Part shown: one piece after another, positions 2,693-54,639 of the stretch
Position numbering within the stretch: position 1 is the stretch's first letter
Layout: each line of letters opens with the position of its first letter
From: Octopus vulgaris
Lineage: Eukaryota
Assembly (NCBI GenBank): GCA_951406725.2
Contig: OX597832.1
Span: 60,450,001-60,514,000, forward strand
Direction of reading: 5' to 3'
Length of the DNA stretch: 64,000 bases
The notes under the pieces: model-generated
What the model was told of the DNA's origin: nothing
The model's input: the letters and a program-made list of their open reading frames with translations, nothing else
Databases searched by the model: none
Program-made: the position numbers and the translations under genes

Positions 2693-3156
2693 CTTAATAT
2701 GCTGGATGTTGCTAAAAAGTATTTGAAGATCGACAAATGCCAGAAAAGTTAGATTTTTTTACTTTTATAAAAAAAGAATTCATTGTATTTTATTTTTTAT
2801 CTACAAACTTTTTTAAGTATAAATAACCATTGATTAAGCTTAACCATAAATAATTATTGAGGTATGTGTGTCTGTGGCCAAGGAAATATGTATGTTATTA
2901 CAGTTAATTTAGAAATACAAGTGTATAGTTCAAATCCTGTCAGGCATCTTGTGTACTTCTAGAAACAAGAGAGCTGACATCACAACAGGATATCAGAGAA
3001 ACATGCTATGAAGATGTAAATATTTAAAAAGATCTTTTAACTGTAAAGGTTTGCTTAGATGTCAAAAATATTAGTGTCATTAACAAAAAGTCTGATATGC
3101 ACACACAATGTGTGAGCATGTGTATACACACACACACACATATATTTCCAAATAAG

Positions 3157-4545: not shown

Positions 4546-4630
4546 CCTCCATTAGATGCACAAACTTACATTGTGGCCTGTTACACTGGCTAGACTTAAA
4601 ATCGCGGCACAGTGGGAGGGTGTCCAGCAA
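4546..4630 (-). CDS. mbnl: mbnl CCCH zinc-finger exon, 85 nt, phase 0/1: LLDTLPLCRDFKSSQCNRPQCKFVHLME
   Basis: Acceptor cctttctcttccag, donor GAGG|gtaagt; C-x7-C-x4-C-x3-H pattern. Confidence 0.95.
4596..4630 (-). CDS. mbnl: alternative reading frame of the same exon when 16072-16184 is skipped: FAGHPPTVPRF*
   Basis: T|TT GCT GGA CAC CCT CCC ACT GTG CCG CGA TTT TAA; matches the insect Mbl C-terminus FTGHPPGVPRF as I recall it. Confidence 0.75.
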
Positions 4631-6724: not shown

Positions 6725-7095
6725 TGTGTATATATATATATATATACTAAATAACTTTACACATACATACGCTTACATTATCCGACAAGCTTCTTTCAGT
6801 TTCTATTCACTTATCTATACAAAACCACACACACATGCGTGCCTGGGTGCAGGAGATCCTGAGTCCTTCTTATCAAACTTATGTGTCATCATAGGATCCA
6901 ATACCTTATAGTATATTTCTTTCTCGTTTTCTCCACATTTTTCTTTTCTCTCTCTCCCTCTCTCAGTATTAGTCATTTATTAATTTCCTAAATCTTCTGA
7001 AAGACACCTTACACAAGTGACATTTGTTATTGGTGTCAAAGTCTGAAACAAGGCCAGCTACATTTGTAATTAATTAATATTAAAAACATCGATAA

Positions 7096-7310
7096 GGCGG
7101 TGAGAGCAGGCAGAACCATTAACATGCTGGGCAAAATGTTTAGTGGCATCTCGTCCATCATTACATTCTGCAATCAAGTTCTGCCATGGTAGACTTTGCC
7201 TTCCATCTTATCAGAATTGATAAAATAAGTAGCCGTTGAACACTGGGTCGATGTAATCAGCTTACACTCACCCTCGGAATCGATGGCCTTGTGCCAAAAT
7301 TTGAAACCAG
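7096..7310 (+). mobile_element. SINE-like repeat (ggcggtgag..ggcagaa...gtgccaaaatttgaaac family)
   Basis: Multiple copies in the window: 3735-3850 (+), 12570-12756, 26565-26765, 26795-26970 and 37553-37759 (-). Confidence 0.75.
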
Positions 7311-8559: not shown

Positions 8560-9506
8560 CACATCTGAGTATAAACACATAGATATAAGTGTAGCTAGTC
8601 ACAATTATCTTTTCAAGAAAGAGCAGACTTCTTTAACTTGAATCTGAAGAAGATGGCATATACCAACTCAAACAATTCTCCAGACTTTACCAAACTAACA
8701 CAGCACTGAAAGAATGGCATTGTGATGGCATCGTATAAGAAGTAGAATGTTGAACAGAATTAGAGATAGAAGAAAAATTCAAGTAGTAATTTTTGACAAA
8801 TGAAATTGGCAGAGCCTCTTTGGTATAATCGGTAGCACAATTGCCCACCGAACAATAAATGCATGGTTGAGCATAAACACAAAGTGAAGGAGGAAACGTT
8901 TCCTATACATAGAATGAAAAACAGATTTTTAATACAAAGAAAAAATAATGTACAAATACGAAAACTAATGCCAGATTTAAATAATTTTCCCCTCCTTTCT
9001 TAGAGGATAGCAATAGCAAAGTGTGTGGGCTAGTGGGTGCGGATATTGGAAGTGGGGGACGGGCAATGTAAAAAGAAATAGAACCATTGTGAAATAACAT
9101 AGGATATGACTAGAGAAAGAGTTATTTTGCTGTTTCTTTCTTTATTTTATCCACATTCTCAAGTTCTATTTTTTATAAAATTGTTTGTTATATGAAGTTT
9201 TGTTTGCTTTTAATGGGTTAAGTGTGATTGATAATTAAAAATATGCGGAGAACTTTTTCAAGAAGAAATGCTGAAAGCTTGAACTTTTTGCAACGTGCAC
9301 AAGCCTGACTGTGTGGTATAGATGTAGGTTCAATCTGACAGTGAAGTAAGTATCTTCTTCCATAAATGTGGGTTGATAAATATTTTAGTACTTAAAACTT
9401 GCTAAACAGAAACCTTGTAGTAGCTTGTCACATGTGTGTGTGTGTGTGTTTGCATGTATGAAAAATTAATGCTGTGAAAACTAGATGTAAATTAATTTGT
9501 GCTATA

Positions 9507-15693: not shown

Positions 15694-16071
15694 GGTATGC
15701 ATGTGTGTAAGTGTATGTATGTGTATATACATATATATATATGCACGCATAAGTGAACTCATAACTATGTATGTTGATATGTATATGGTTAAAAGAAGTT
15801 CGATATATGACAAAAGAAAAAAATGTGATACAGATATCTTCTTGGCCATGTATAAAAAATAAAAGACAAATCATATTTGTCTTAAGATTAAGAAAAGTTC
15901 AAGACACGAATGAAACAAAACCAAAAGATACTTAAACAGTAAGATAAGCAGAAATGAAGAAAGCAAACACGCAATACAATAATAATAATAAAACACTAGT
16001 AAAACAAAGAGCAGTAGTAGAAGCAGGTGTAGCACTAAGGATGATGAAGAAGAGTTTTAGAGCACTACTAC

Positions 16072-16184
16072 CTGGTTGTTCTCATCAAAGTAATTTACAC
16101 TAGCAGCATTAGTAGGAAGTGAGGTGGTGCTAGTAGCAGCACTTGCCATCGATGCAGGCTGGTTAGTGTTGGCAATCATCGGCA
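16072..16184 (-). CDS. mbnl: mbnl frame-shifting cassette exon (exon-8 equivalent), 113 nt, phase 1/0: LPMIANTNQPASMASAATSTTSLPTNAASVNYFDENNQ
   Basis: ccacag acceptor, CAG|gtagta donor; resembles vertebrate exon 8 VPM...SAATTSATSVP...NQ (recalled); bridges phase 1 to the phase-0 zinc-finger frame of exon 4630. Confidence 0.88.
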
Positions 16185-16507
16185 CTGTGGGTGGTTGTCA
16201 TTTGGAAAGTTTTTGTTTTTTTTCAGAAGACAAGAAGGGTCAACAACAGAGGTGGTGGTGGTGTGGTGGTGTTGGCGGCAGCAGCGGTAGCAGCAGCAGC
16301 AGCAGTAGTAGTAGATGACAGCAGCAGGAGCAGCAGTGGTAGCAGCAGCAGCCGATAGCAGCAGCGGCAGCAGGAGTGGTTATAAAAGTGCAGACGAAGC
16401 ACAGGTGACATGCAGAGTAGTGGTACAAGTGCACAGGAGAGGGTCAAGGTATGAAAGAGAGGAATAGCAAAAAAAAAAAGTAAAAAAAAAGAAAAGAAAT
16501 AGTAGAC
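16185..16507 (-). promoter_or_regulatory. about 320-nt AG exclusion zone containing an interrupted CUG tract (more than 20 YGCY)
   Basis: No CT dinucleotide on the plus strand from 16187 to 16507; distal pyrimidine tract 16441-16500; (CUG/CCG)n at 16274-16372; A/C-rich spacer directly before the AG. Confidence 0.75.
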
Positions 16508-17632
16508 CTTATTTTCCTTTTTTTTCTGTGATTTATTTACTATTGTTATTATTATTGTTATTATTGATTTTTTTTTCGCCAAAACATTAAAGGAAGCGAA
16601 AATCCTGGTCTTGGATTCTTCAAGCTTGTCCTGTGCCTGCCATAGGGTAAGGACCAAGAAAAAGCATGCAAGAACACTTCTTACAAGTTTCTAGCTCCAA
16701 AATCATTTGAGAGTTTCTTTTTGATTACAGCAAAATCTTAGCTGTTCTTCACAGGTTTGACCAATGGGAAATGGTGCAAATTATCAATAAAAAGGGCAAT
16801 TATTATTATAATTATTATCATTATCATCGATATCAAGAAGTGTAATTGAAGAGCTAGTGAGAGAAGTGCAAAAAAAATCTCTTGGAAAGGACAAGAGTTA
16901 GAGATGAAAGGCATGAGAAGTATAGAATAGAATAATATGGAAGTCTTAGAGTCATGAAAATGAAAGAATTCCAAGTTGTAAGATGGTGCTTAGTGTGAAC
17001 AGAGTGCATATGCATGTGTTAGTGCCCAGCCTCAAGTCAACCTTAATTAAAAGAAACAAAGAAAACCCAAGATCAAAAGATTCAACCCTGATTAACAAGC
17101 CCTTTATTCCAATACACTGTATTTAGGATTGCATAATTTAATGTCTCATGCCATTTTTAAAGCCTGACAAGAGTAATCAGAGTGAAGTCTGGTTGTTATT
17201 TGTTGCAGGTTGTTTGACCACACAGAAAAGACATGGGCAATGCTTTGATGACAAGAGGGCTGCATGGGATATGTCTCATCATTAGACAGGCCACACTACT
17301 AGTAATTTTTCATTAGGCATTAGGCTATTCAGAAAAGTCCATAGGCTACAGCTTACACATGACTGATATAGAAATTCCCTTGTTTACTCTATGTGATTGC
17401 TGCTTTTATTGTAAAATGGTAGCAATTGGTTTTAGTCAAGCACTGAGGGCTGAAACCAAATGATAGTTAAGGAACAAGCCGCAAGTCAAACACATCAAGT
17501 ATGGACTGATAATAACAGCTGACTAGAACACACAAAGTATATTCTGTATCTAAGGGTGTTAGGATTTTGAGAATGTAATATGCATATCTGCTTGGCTGCC
17601 TGTCATTTCTAGACAGAATTTGGAATGTAATT

Positions 17633-17767
17633 TGTAAACCAAGAGGCTTAAAGTTTATGCTAGTGTAACAGAATGGCTGTAAACCAAGAGGCTTAAAGTT
17701 TATGCTAGTGTAACAGAATGGCTGTAAACCAAGAGGCTTAAAGTTTATGCTAGTGTAACAGAATGGC
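17633..17767. repeat. three perfect tandem copies of a 45-bp unit
   Basis: tgtaaaccaagaggcttaaagtttatgctagtgtaacagaatggc starts at 17633, 17678 and 17723 with no spacers. Confidence 0.97.
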
Positions 17768-31512: not shown

Positions 31513-31600
31513 TCTGTCTGTCAGTCTGATTGCCTTGTCTGTCTGCCTGCCTGTGTGCCTGCGTGCCTGTCTGCCCGTCTGCCTGCCTGTCTGCCTGCCT
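31513..31600. repeat. degenerate (CCTG/TCTG)n repeat (CAGG/CAGA in the pre-mRNA)
   Basis: Directly visible, immediately after the candidate stop at 31600. Confidence 0.9.
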
Positions 31601-31730
31601 CATGACTGGGTACTGCTAGGCTGTTGTAGGCAACCATCGGTTTGGACAATGAGCCAGCTGGGCAGATGTGATGGAGGGACATGAGTGAGGTGCGGGAGTC
31701 CAGCACTGTACTCCAAGTTGCTAGTTACAC
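31600..31730 (-). CDS. mbnl: candidate alternative terminal exon: CVTSNLEYSAGLPHLTHVPPSHLPSWLIVQTDGCLQQPSSTQS*
   Basis: Strong acceptor tttcttttcctcctcctcttcactgcag; only phase 1 (the phase of this intron) is open; GC-rich relative to flanks; AATAAA at 31271-76 and 31256-61; no recognised homology. Confidence 0.45.
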
Positions 31731-36659: not shown

Positions 36660-36695
36660 AAGTGAAATAAGGTTCATTCAGCTTGGTTGAAGAAT
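36660..36695 (-). CDS. mbnl: mbnl microexon B, 36 nt, phase 1/1: YSSTKLNEPYFT
   Basis: ctcac branch candidates, tract cccctttttctctccttc, caacag acceptor and TT|gtaagt donor; frame-preserving; same size, phase and position as vertebrate MBNL1 exon 7 (36 nt). Confidence 0.85.
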
Positions 36696-45834: not shown

Positions 45835-45876
45835 AAGTAAAATACGGTTGAATTTCATTCAGCTTTGTGGATGAAT
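45835..45876 (-). CDS. mbnl: mbnl microexon A, 42 nt, phase 1/1: YSSTKLNEIQPYFT
   Basis: Branch-like attaac, pyrimidine tract, aatccag acceptor and TT|gtaagt donor; frame-preserving; paralogous to 36660-36695. Confidence 0.85.
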
Positions 45877-47644: not shown

Positions 47645-47786
47645 ATGTTACTGGTAAGTATGGCTGTTGAAGTTGCATTGCAAGTGCCTGCTGGTAGGCC
47701 ACATTGCCAGGTTGATAGACTGGGACGCCACTTTTACTATCTGCCACTGCCACACGTTTAGCATAAGGTGCACCGGTAATACCACC
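47645..47786 (-). CDS. mbnl: mbnl exon (exon-6 equivalent), 142 nt, phase 0/1: GGITGAPYAKRVAVADSKSGVPVYQPGNVAYQQALAMQLQQPYLPVT
   Basis: Acceptor tttcctcttgttggcactag, donor ACAT|gtaagt; KR..., KSG.PVYQP and YQQALAMQLQQ are Muscleblind family motifs. Confidence 0.95.
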
Positions 47787-54280: not shown

Positions 54281-54524
54281 TACATACACACACACACATA
54301 ATCAAACAGTGATTATCCTCTGAAGTACATGTGTGCACGTGTGTGTGTGCATATATATGTACGTAAGTATATGTATATATACATACATATATATATGAAT
54401 GTAAAAGGAAAACTCTACATTGCTAAGTAAAGCATATTGAAGGCCAGATTTTATTGTTATTATTAACTAATATTATTTTGTCATGTGACTGTGCAAGTAA
54501 TTATCATTATATATATATAAAAAA

Positions 54525-54570
54525 AAAAAGCAGACTACAGCAACATGCAAAGCATGATGGGATATAGTAC
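54525..54570 (-). promoter_or_regulatory. downstream intronic motifs of the NLS exon (Rbfox UGCAUG plus YGCY)
   Basis: Minus strand reads gtactatatcccatcatgctttgcatgttgctgtagtctgctt: UGCAUG at 54544-54549 and three UGCU. Confidence 0.6.
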
Positions 54571-54639
54571 CAGAGTAACGAGATCGTCTGCAGGCTCACG
54601 AGGTCGCTTCTTGCCCGTCAAGACCTCAACCACTTGCGG
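54571..54639 (-). CDS. mbnl: mbnl NLS cassette exon (vertebrate MBNL1 exon-5 equivalent), 69 nt, phase 0/0: PQVVEVLTGKKRPREPADDLVTL
   Basis: Acceptor actaattag, donor CTG|gtacta; KKRP basic motif followed by D..L as in vertebrate exon 5 (KSLKRPLEATFDL, recalled); splices in frame to 47786. Confidence 0.9.

Follow-up and report, generated by a model that had tools for sequence, protein, structure and literature searches.

A candidate muscleblind-responsive splicing silencer upstream of a frame-switch exon in the octopus muscleblind gene

Muscleblind (MBNL) proteins bind the YGCY motifs of CUG repeats and are sequestered by them in myotonic dystrophy. The octopus muscleblind gene carries a CUG-rich tract of its own, directly upstream of a 113-nt exon (exon E) and within a long stretch devoid of AG, which raises the question of what such a tract does in the pre-mRNA of the protein that recognizes it. 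The initial annotation took it for a second autoregulatory module with the design of the element before the NLS exon, built from a microsatellite whose length could tune exon inclusion. Here we ask what exon E encodes, how unusual the zone before it is, whether its layout recurs in other animals, and which explanation fits best.

Exon map and a frame-switch exon

The window, the whole 64-kb stretch of DNA analysed here, is rich in AT and microsatellites. Exon coordinates were obtained by mapping named octopus muscleblind proteins onto it, and all exons lie on the minus strand. They include a 69-nt KR/NLS cassette exon (54571-54639), a second KR exon of 142 nt (47645-47786), which is 100% identical to named muscleblind of Octopus vulgaris and O. 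sinensis, a 42-nt exon (45835-45876), a paralogous 36-nt exon that is the last internal exon preceding E (36660-36695), and an alternative terminal exon that bypasses E (31600-31730). Exon E itself (16072-16184) has a weak donor and is followed by an 85-nt exon (4546-4630) and the last coding exon (1153-1289). Pfam CCCH matches support the muscleblind/MBNL identity of the gene, and the first two zinc-finger pairs are encoded further upstream on the same contig.

Several other features of the locus were observed. The 42-nt and 36-nt exons encode near-identical peptides and represent one exon duplicated in tandem; in the cephalopod-like proteins P0006-P0011 the 42-nt-type exon occurs twice. The alternative terminal exon is used by 11 O. 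sinensis isoforms, and the sense strand after it carries CAGG/CAGA repeats, which read on the opposite strand as a CCTG-like YGCY cluster. In the intron that precedes exon E, a 45-nt unit is repeated three times in perfect tandem (17633-17767). Open frames at 2715-2585 and 1460-1343 (minus strand) have in common a short near-identical stretch and the same peptide end, and are probably a dispersed repeat, not exons.

Exon E is 2 mod 3 in length, and its use changes the reading frame. When the exons are joined by coordinates with E skipped, the protein stops ten codons into the 85-nt exon, which reproduces the tail of annotated octopus proteins. With E included, the 85-nt exon is read in another frame, in which it encodes zinc finger 5, and translation continues into the last coding exon, which encodes zinc finger 6 and is in frame with E inclusion only, so that two more CCCH fingers are added. 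P0051, a close relative of the octopus third pair, matches the solved MBNL1 and MBNL2 finger pairs with an E value of 6e-15. The included form, with both junction peptides and the third pair, is present in annotated bivalve, scorpion, spider and sea-spider proteins, and a hemichordate protein also has a third finger pair, while the skip tail occurs in cephalopod, scallop and unnamed proteins. The exon E length implied by 12 proteins ranges from 86 to 119 nt, and the scorpion peptide implies the 95 nt discussed below. Together, the proteins and the coordinates indicate that exon E is a real exon whose inclusion switches the frame and brings in a third tandem CCCH pair. This is the more interesting part of the locus, and it was missed by the initial annotation.

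The nonsense-mediated decay rule places its boundary at 50-55 nt before the last exon junction, and the skip-form stop is at its edge, lying exactly 50 nt upstream both in the window (4630-4546, minus strand) and in L172, a genomic contig described below (9283-9367). The skip form is common among transcript-derived proteins despite this stop position. An AlphaFold prediction for the bivalve model P0064 (21 rows) had a mean pLDDT of 43.5, too low for use.

In cephalopods, spliced exon E is found in none of the 15 named octopod proteins, of which three skip E, 11 end at the alternative terminal exon and one is partial, and in none of six unnamed cephalopod-like proteins. Of 24 listed sequencing runs, none recorded as RNA, four were used; two runs that we guessed to be RNA gave only unspliced contigs across E, with zero splice joints. 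Searching proteins with the open frame of exon E returned 27 candidates, none of them scored, and a search of representative proteins returned one match, a 40-residue unspliced open frame. Reading through the exon E donor (16071-16057, minus strand) adds four extra codons before a stop, and the 40-residue frame of this type is present on four public contigs, which are unspliced RNA or DNA.

The DNA of exon E has changed little. A contig from organism E has no substitution in 278 nt spanning exon E and its flanks, including the downstream intron flank (15918-16071, minus strand), whereas intron farther away has 42 in 517 nt (Fisher p about 1e-8). In a contig from organism D, exon E likewise has no substitution. 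These comparisons argue that exon E is under constraint.

The AG-free zone before exon E

Upstream of exon E, the minus strand is free of AG for 321 nt, from the AG at 16509-16508 to the acceptor AG at 16186-16185 (zone and acceptor, 16185-16507), in agreement with the roughly 320 nt first noted. It is the third-longest such run on the minus strand of the window, the two longer ones being TA microsatellites. The zone opens with a distal U-rich polypyrimidine tract (16460-16502), followed by a pyrimidine-rich middle part (16376-16459) that contains one UGCAUG near -229, which we take to be an RBFOX-type motif. Next comes a degenerate CUG/CUA/CCG tract (16274-16375), with 21 overlapping YGCY motifs and a longest pure run of (CTG)5; TRF finds 73% matches at period 3 and no long uninterrupted repeat. 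A CAC/CCA cluster (16252-16274), a short pyrimidine tract preceded by a proximal branch candidate, A16240 at -56 (together 16225-16243), and an A/C-rich spacer where a proximal U tract would otherwise stand (16187-16224) complete the zone, all on the minus strand. The distal U-rich tract and the A/C spacer had both been recognized in the initial annotation. So had an abundance of more than 20 YGCY in an interrupted CUG/CCG tract and further motifs in the exon and just downstream, and the counts bear this out: 23 overlapping YGCY in the zone, 21 of them between 16372 and 16274 and 22 within 150 nt (14 when counted without overlap), with six more inside exon E and another six in the next 320 nt.

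The acceptor of exon E has only four U between -25 and -4, where the lowest control exon has seven. With no U tract close to it, this acceptor would depend on a pyrimidine tract and branch point located further upstream. Three branch candidates had been proposed, of which 16444 (-260) and 16240 hold up, each being the A of TTGAC, but 16505 is a C, and the nearest branch-like adenosines, near the U tract, are 16509 (-325) and 16481 (-297). The zone has the AG-free run of at least 150 nt and the upstream pyrimidine tract expected of distant-branch-point exons, and it resembles these exons, which are enriched for alternative splicing, in its internal motifs as well (PMC1431707). In that work no more than one-half to one-fifth of long zones indicate a distal branch point, and the branch adenosines of exon E are candidates in this sense.

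The reads compared cover the proximal 54 nt of the zone, repeats having been skipped over 16239-16576. In three other organisms these 54 nt have three substituted places and three indels, none of which creates an AG, a weak result because any acceptor is AG-poor there. The octopus zone folds with z = -3.1, chiefly through pairing of the U tract with the A-rich spacer (z = -2.3 with flanks), but the corresponding zone of L172 has no fold (z = -0.3), which rules out a conserved RNA structure. A purine-rich stretch just upstream (window 16533-16460, minus strand) can form a hairpin with the distal U tract in competition with the spacer, and is absent in L172. Rfam gave three matches, each far under the gathering score.

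To place these numbers, we used 47 arbitrary 10-kb stretches of the octopus genome (940 kb of strand) and 93 octopus kinase and myosin exons, probably mostly constitutive, whose acceptors were chosen by pyrimidine score; 92 were usable, one having no acceptor candidate. AG-free length alone is not rare in the genome: runs of at least 300 nt number 29 in 940 kb of strand (31 per Mb), and shuffling gives each sub-segment of the zone a probability of 0.10-0.84 of being AG-free on its own. Before control exons, the AG-free zone has a median of 44.5 nt and reaches at least 300 nt in one of 92. The YGCY density is far more unusual. None of the 29 background runs contains more than four YGCY, the control exons have a median of 2.5 per 320 nt and a maximum of 10 (n = 92), and clusters of at least 20 YGCY per 150 nt occur once in 940 kb, so that the chance of a 20-YGCY cluster lying within 300 nt of a chosen exon is about 0.0003 (upper bound 0.002). 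Along 194 kb of the sense strand of the muscleblind locus, only the two stretches that precede the NLS exon and exon E reach at least 10 YGCY per 150 nt; one antisense place in the same 194 kb likewise reaches this density. The sole background cluster that matches the density of the exon E zone is a long TGCT-type tetranucleotide tract in L181 (locus plus strand, about 2750-3070; detected on its minus strand at offsets 6931-7235).

A distant invertebrate intron and the vertebrate 95-nt exon

Of seven loci from a metagenome scan, five weak matches (L173-L177) were discarded. The remaining two are L171, an intronless spliced transcript of the skip form, and L172, a genomic contig of 10.1 kb with five muscleblind exons. 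L172 shares 47 of 60 protein residues with octopus, which makes it as distant as chelicerates (48-49) and bivalves (43-45), unlike P0051 (54), and in a tree of 12 rows it falls within no group. Its exon E measures exactly 95 nt, and the dual frame is preserved. Within the 10.1 kb, the longest AG-free run (194 nt; 557 AGs in total) ends directly at exon E, and the top YGCY window, 16 per 150 nt, also lies directly before it. On both measures the NLS exon comes second, and the remaining three exons of the contig have AG-free stretches of 24-84 nt with 0-3 YGCY. In L172, a branch-like yUnAy at -203 leads into a pyrimidine tract, and the acceptor of exon E is U-poor as in octopus (six U between -25 and -4, again below the lowest control). 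Both exon E donors deviate from the U1 consensus. The two tracts contain a 29-of-32-nt match that exceeds 300 of 300 shuffles; an unrelated octopus repeat scores equally, so this match is no proof of descent. The single orthologous intron obtained thus keeps an AG-free, YGCY-dense zone before the same exon, as the initial annotation would expect of orthologues, and we conclude from this one intron that the layout is conserved between octopus and L172.

The NLS exon is preceded by a sister element, a 186-nt AG-free zone with 12 YGCY (54640-54827, minus strand). This element can be aligned position for position between octopus and L172, scoring 127 against at most 37 in shuffles, whereas the two exon E elements are alike in composition more than in sequence. 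Around the NLS exon (window 54520-54840, minus strand; L172 920-1210) we also observe a long near-identical YGCY block upstream of the exon and, just downstream of its donor, a UGCAUG-containing block kept in both. The bivalve model P0064 seems to translate the NLS intron element as a false N-terminus. The layout of the octopus NLS exon is also that of C. elegans mbl-1 exon 7 and of the MBNL1 e5 loop, in which a 54-nt NLS exon with MBNL sites in the upstream intron, an AG zone of 173 nt and a distal branch at -141 is skipped at high MBNL. Exon E differs from e5, which keeps the frame and alters localization, in that it shifts the frame. Deep conservation is described in print for the NLS exon (PMC10773944, PMC5786016).

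The closest vertebrate likeness to exon E is the MBNL 95-nt exon, ex.95nt (e8; Mbnl2 exon 9). It has the same place in the exon order, after a KR exon and a 36-nt exon, a length of 2 mod 3 (95 nt in L172, 113 nt in octopus), a frame shift into an alternative C-terminus, a peptide that begins with a hydrophobic residue and PM and ends with Q, and the longest AG-free zone among the examined exons of its gene. In human MBNL1, the AG zones before the 54-, 36- and 95-nt exons are 173, 134 and 224 nt, and the main branch point for the 95-nt exon is at -229 (PMC2991248). Myotonic dystrophy disturbs the splicing of all three exons (PMC5137450), and loss of MBNL1 increases inclusion of the 95-bp Mbnl2 exon, with a frame shift that removes the PEST tail (PMC9943662). 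A review lists e8 among the exons under feedback control (PMC13044900). There are also differences. In vertebrates inclusion leads to a short tail and MBNL2 loses its PEST degron, whereas exon E would add a third zinc-finger pair; furthermore, the octopus zone is 321 nt long and contains CUG runs, as against 224 nt in the vertebrate gene. The peptides of scorpion P0037 and MBNL2 are both 32 residues long with eight ungapped identities, five of them at positions 2-6, in a by-eye comparison of low-complexity sequence. On position, phase and length, and more tentatively on this peptide comparison, we judge exon E to be the probable counterpart of ex.95nt.

The 224-nt AG zone, distal branch and MBNL1-dependent repression of the vertebrate exon, together with the L172 zone, support the earlier proposal of a second autoregulatory module with the NLS-exon design. 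Reviews describe invertebrate muscleblind with one or two finger pairs and state deep conservation for the NLS-exon loop only. According to Irion, insects have two pairs and the MblF form has a divergent pair (PMC3315501), which may be the third pair. We found no paper on exon E or on a third finger pair in invertebrates within a literature search that covered mainly openly accessible journals. We regard the zone as a real regulatory element, in which the known MBNL ex.95nt design is coupled with a third zinc-finger pair and can be followed to distant invertebrates.

A candidate silencer and its alternatives

We consider it probable that the zone acts as an intronic splicing silencer for an ancient, MBNL-repressed frame-switch cassette exon that operates in negative feedback, with muscleblind binding and the branch point proposed from motif content. 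Branching would be distal, at -260 to -325, or alternatively at -56. Muscleblind loaded on the YGCY block would stop spliceosome assembly or AG scanning and so block recognition of E, and high muscleblind levels would therefore yield the short form with E skipped, low levels the six-finger form. The resulting negative feedback would run parallel to the NLS-exon loop. The reading predicts a six-finger octopus isoform, so far unannotated.

The same silencer could be run mainly by other repressors from a distal branch point, an RBPMS/couch-potato type factor acting on CAC, RBFOX on GCAUG or a pyrimidine-tract binder, with YGCY secondary. The last 100 nt of the octopus intron contain nine CAC, a number equalled or exceeded in only one of 92 control exons, GCAUG is present in both the octopus and L172 zones, and RBPMS is a repressor of the mammalian 95-nt exon that works through upstream CAC clusters on other exons (PMC6613909). 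L172, however, has two CAC in the last 100 nt of its intron yet 16 YGCY, and YGCY is the feature in common. Co-regulation by other repressors would also fit repression by muscleblind, and we regard a mainly non-muscleblind silencer as unlikely.

Still less probable, in our estimate, is that the CUG microsatellite is itself the working unit, with a length that varies among individuals and species and sets inclusion like a dial. Its appeal lies in the overlapping YGCY counts (23 in octopus, 16 in L172), in the rarity of (CTG)5 runs in the octopus background (three in 940 kb), in the indels that the spacer next to the tract shows in three organisms, and in a report that activity correlates with motif number in a fixed structural context (PMC6158504). 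Counted without overlap, though, the sites are equal, 14 and 14, and L172 has almost no pure repeat. The same report finds that overlapping UGCU motifs are bound but have absent or reduced activity; it concerns an enhancer context, so that transfer to silencing is uncertain. The equal counts and the overlapping-motif result together weaken the dial, and the microsatellite part of the initial annotation was overstated. The expanded CUG RNA of myotonic dystrophy type 1 is alike in that its CUG units offer YGCY, but the octopus tract has five pure units in an interrupted stretch of about 100 nt, acts in cis and is intronic, with no basis for sequestration.

Highly improbable is a neutral trinucleotide microsatellite beside a pyrimidine tract, with an ordinary branch at -56, the AG-free run as a by-product and E nearly silent in octopus: the frequency of long AG-free runs, the shuffling probabilities and the lack of a spliced octopus product among the proteins and the two guessed-RNA runs would suit it, but it must contend with the small chance of such a YGCY cluster near the exon, the same layout in L172, and the near-invariance of exon E and its flanks.

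Under repression by muscleblind, the silencer would be old, its layout homologous to that of vertebrate ex.95nt, and the octopus CUG runs would have arisen by slippage within it and not be its origin. We give roughly even chances to the broader proposal that this exon was already a feedback switch in the bilaterian ancestor, with muscleblind turning off its own third finger pair, and that vertebrates lost the pair and kept the switch for control of the tail and stability. The full statement, in which slippage-prone CUG runs of octopus are added to this ancestral switch and vertebrate loss and allele length sets the share of the six-finger form, seems to us quite doubtful; if true, the kind of RNA that causes toxicity in myotonic dystrophy would here serve a healthy function. 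If muscleblind repression of exon E holds, the gene would contain a second muscleblind loop as old as the NLS-exon loop, the octopus would offer a natural test of interrupted CUG runs as a cis silencer, and the vertebrate 95-nt exon, mis-spliced in myotonic dystrophy, would ancestrally have turned a third RNA-binding module on and off.
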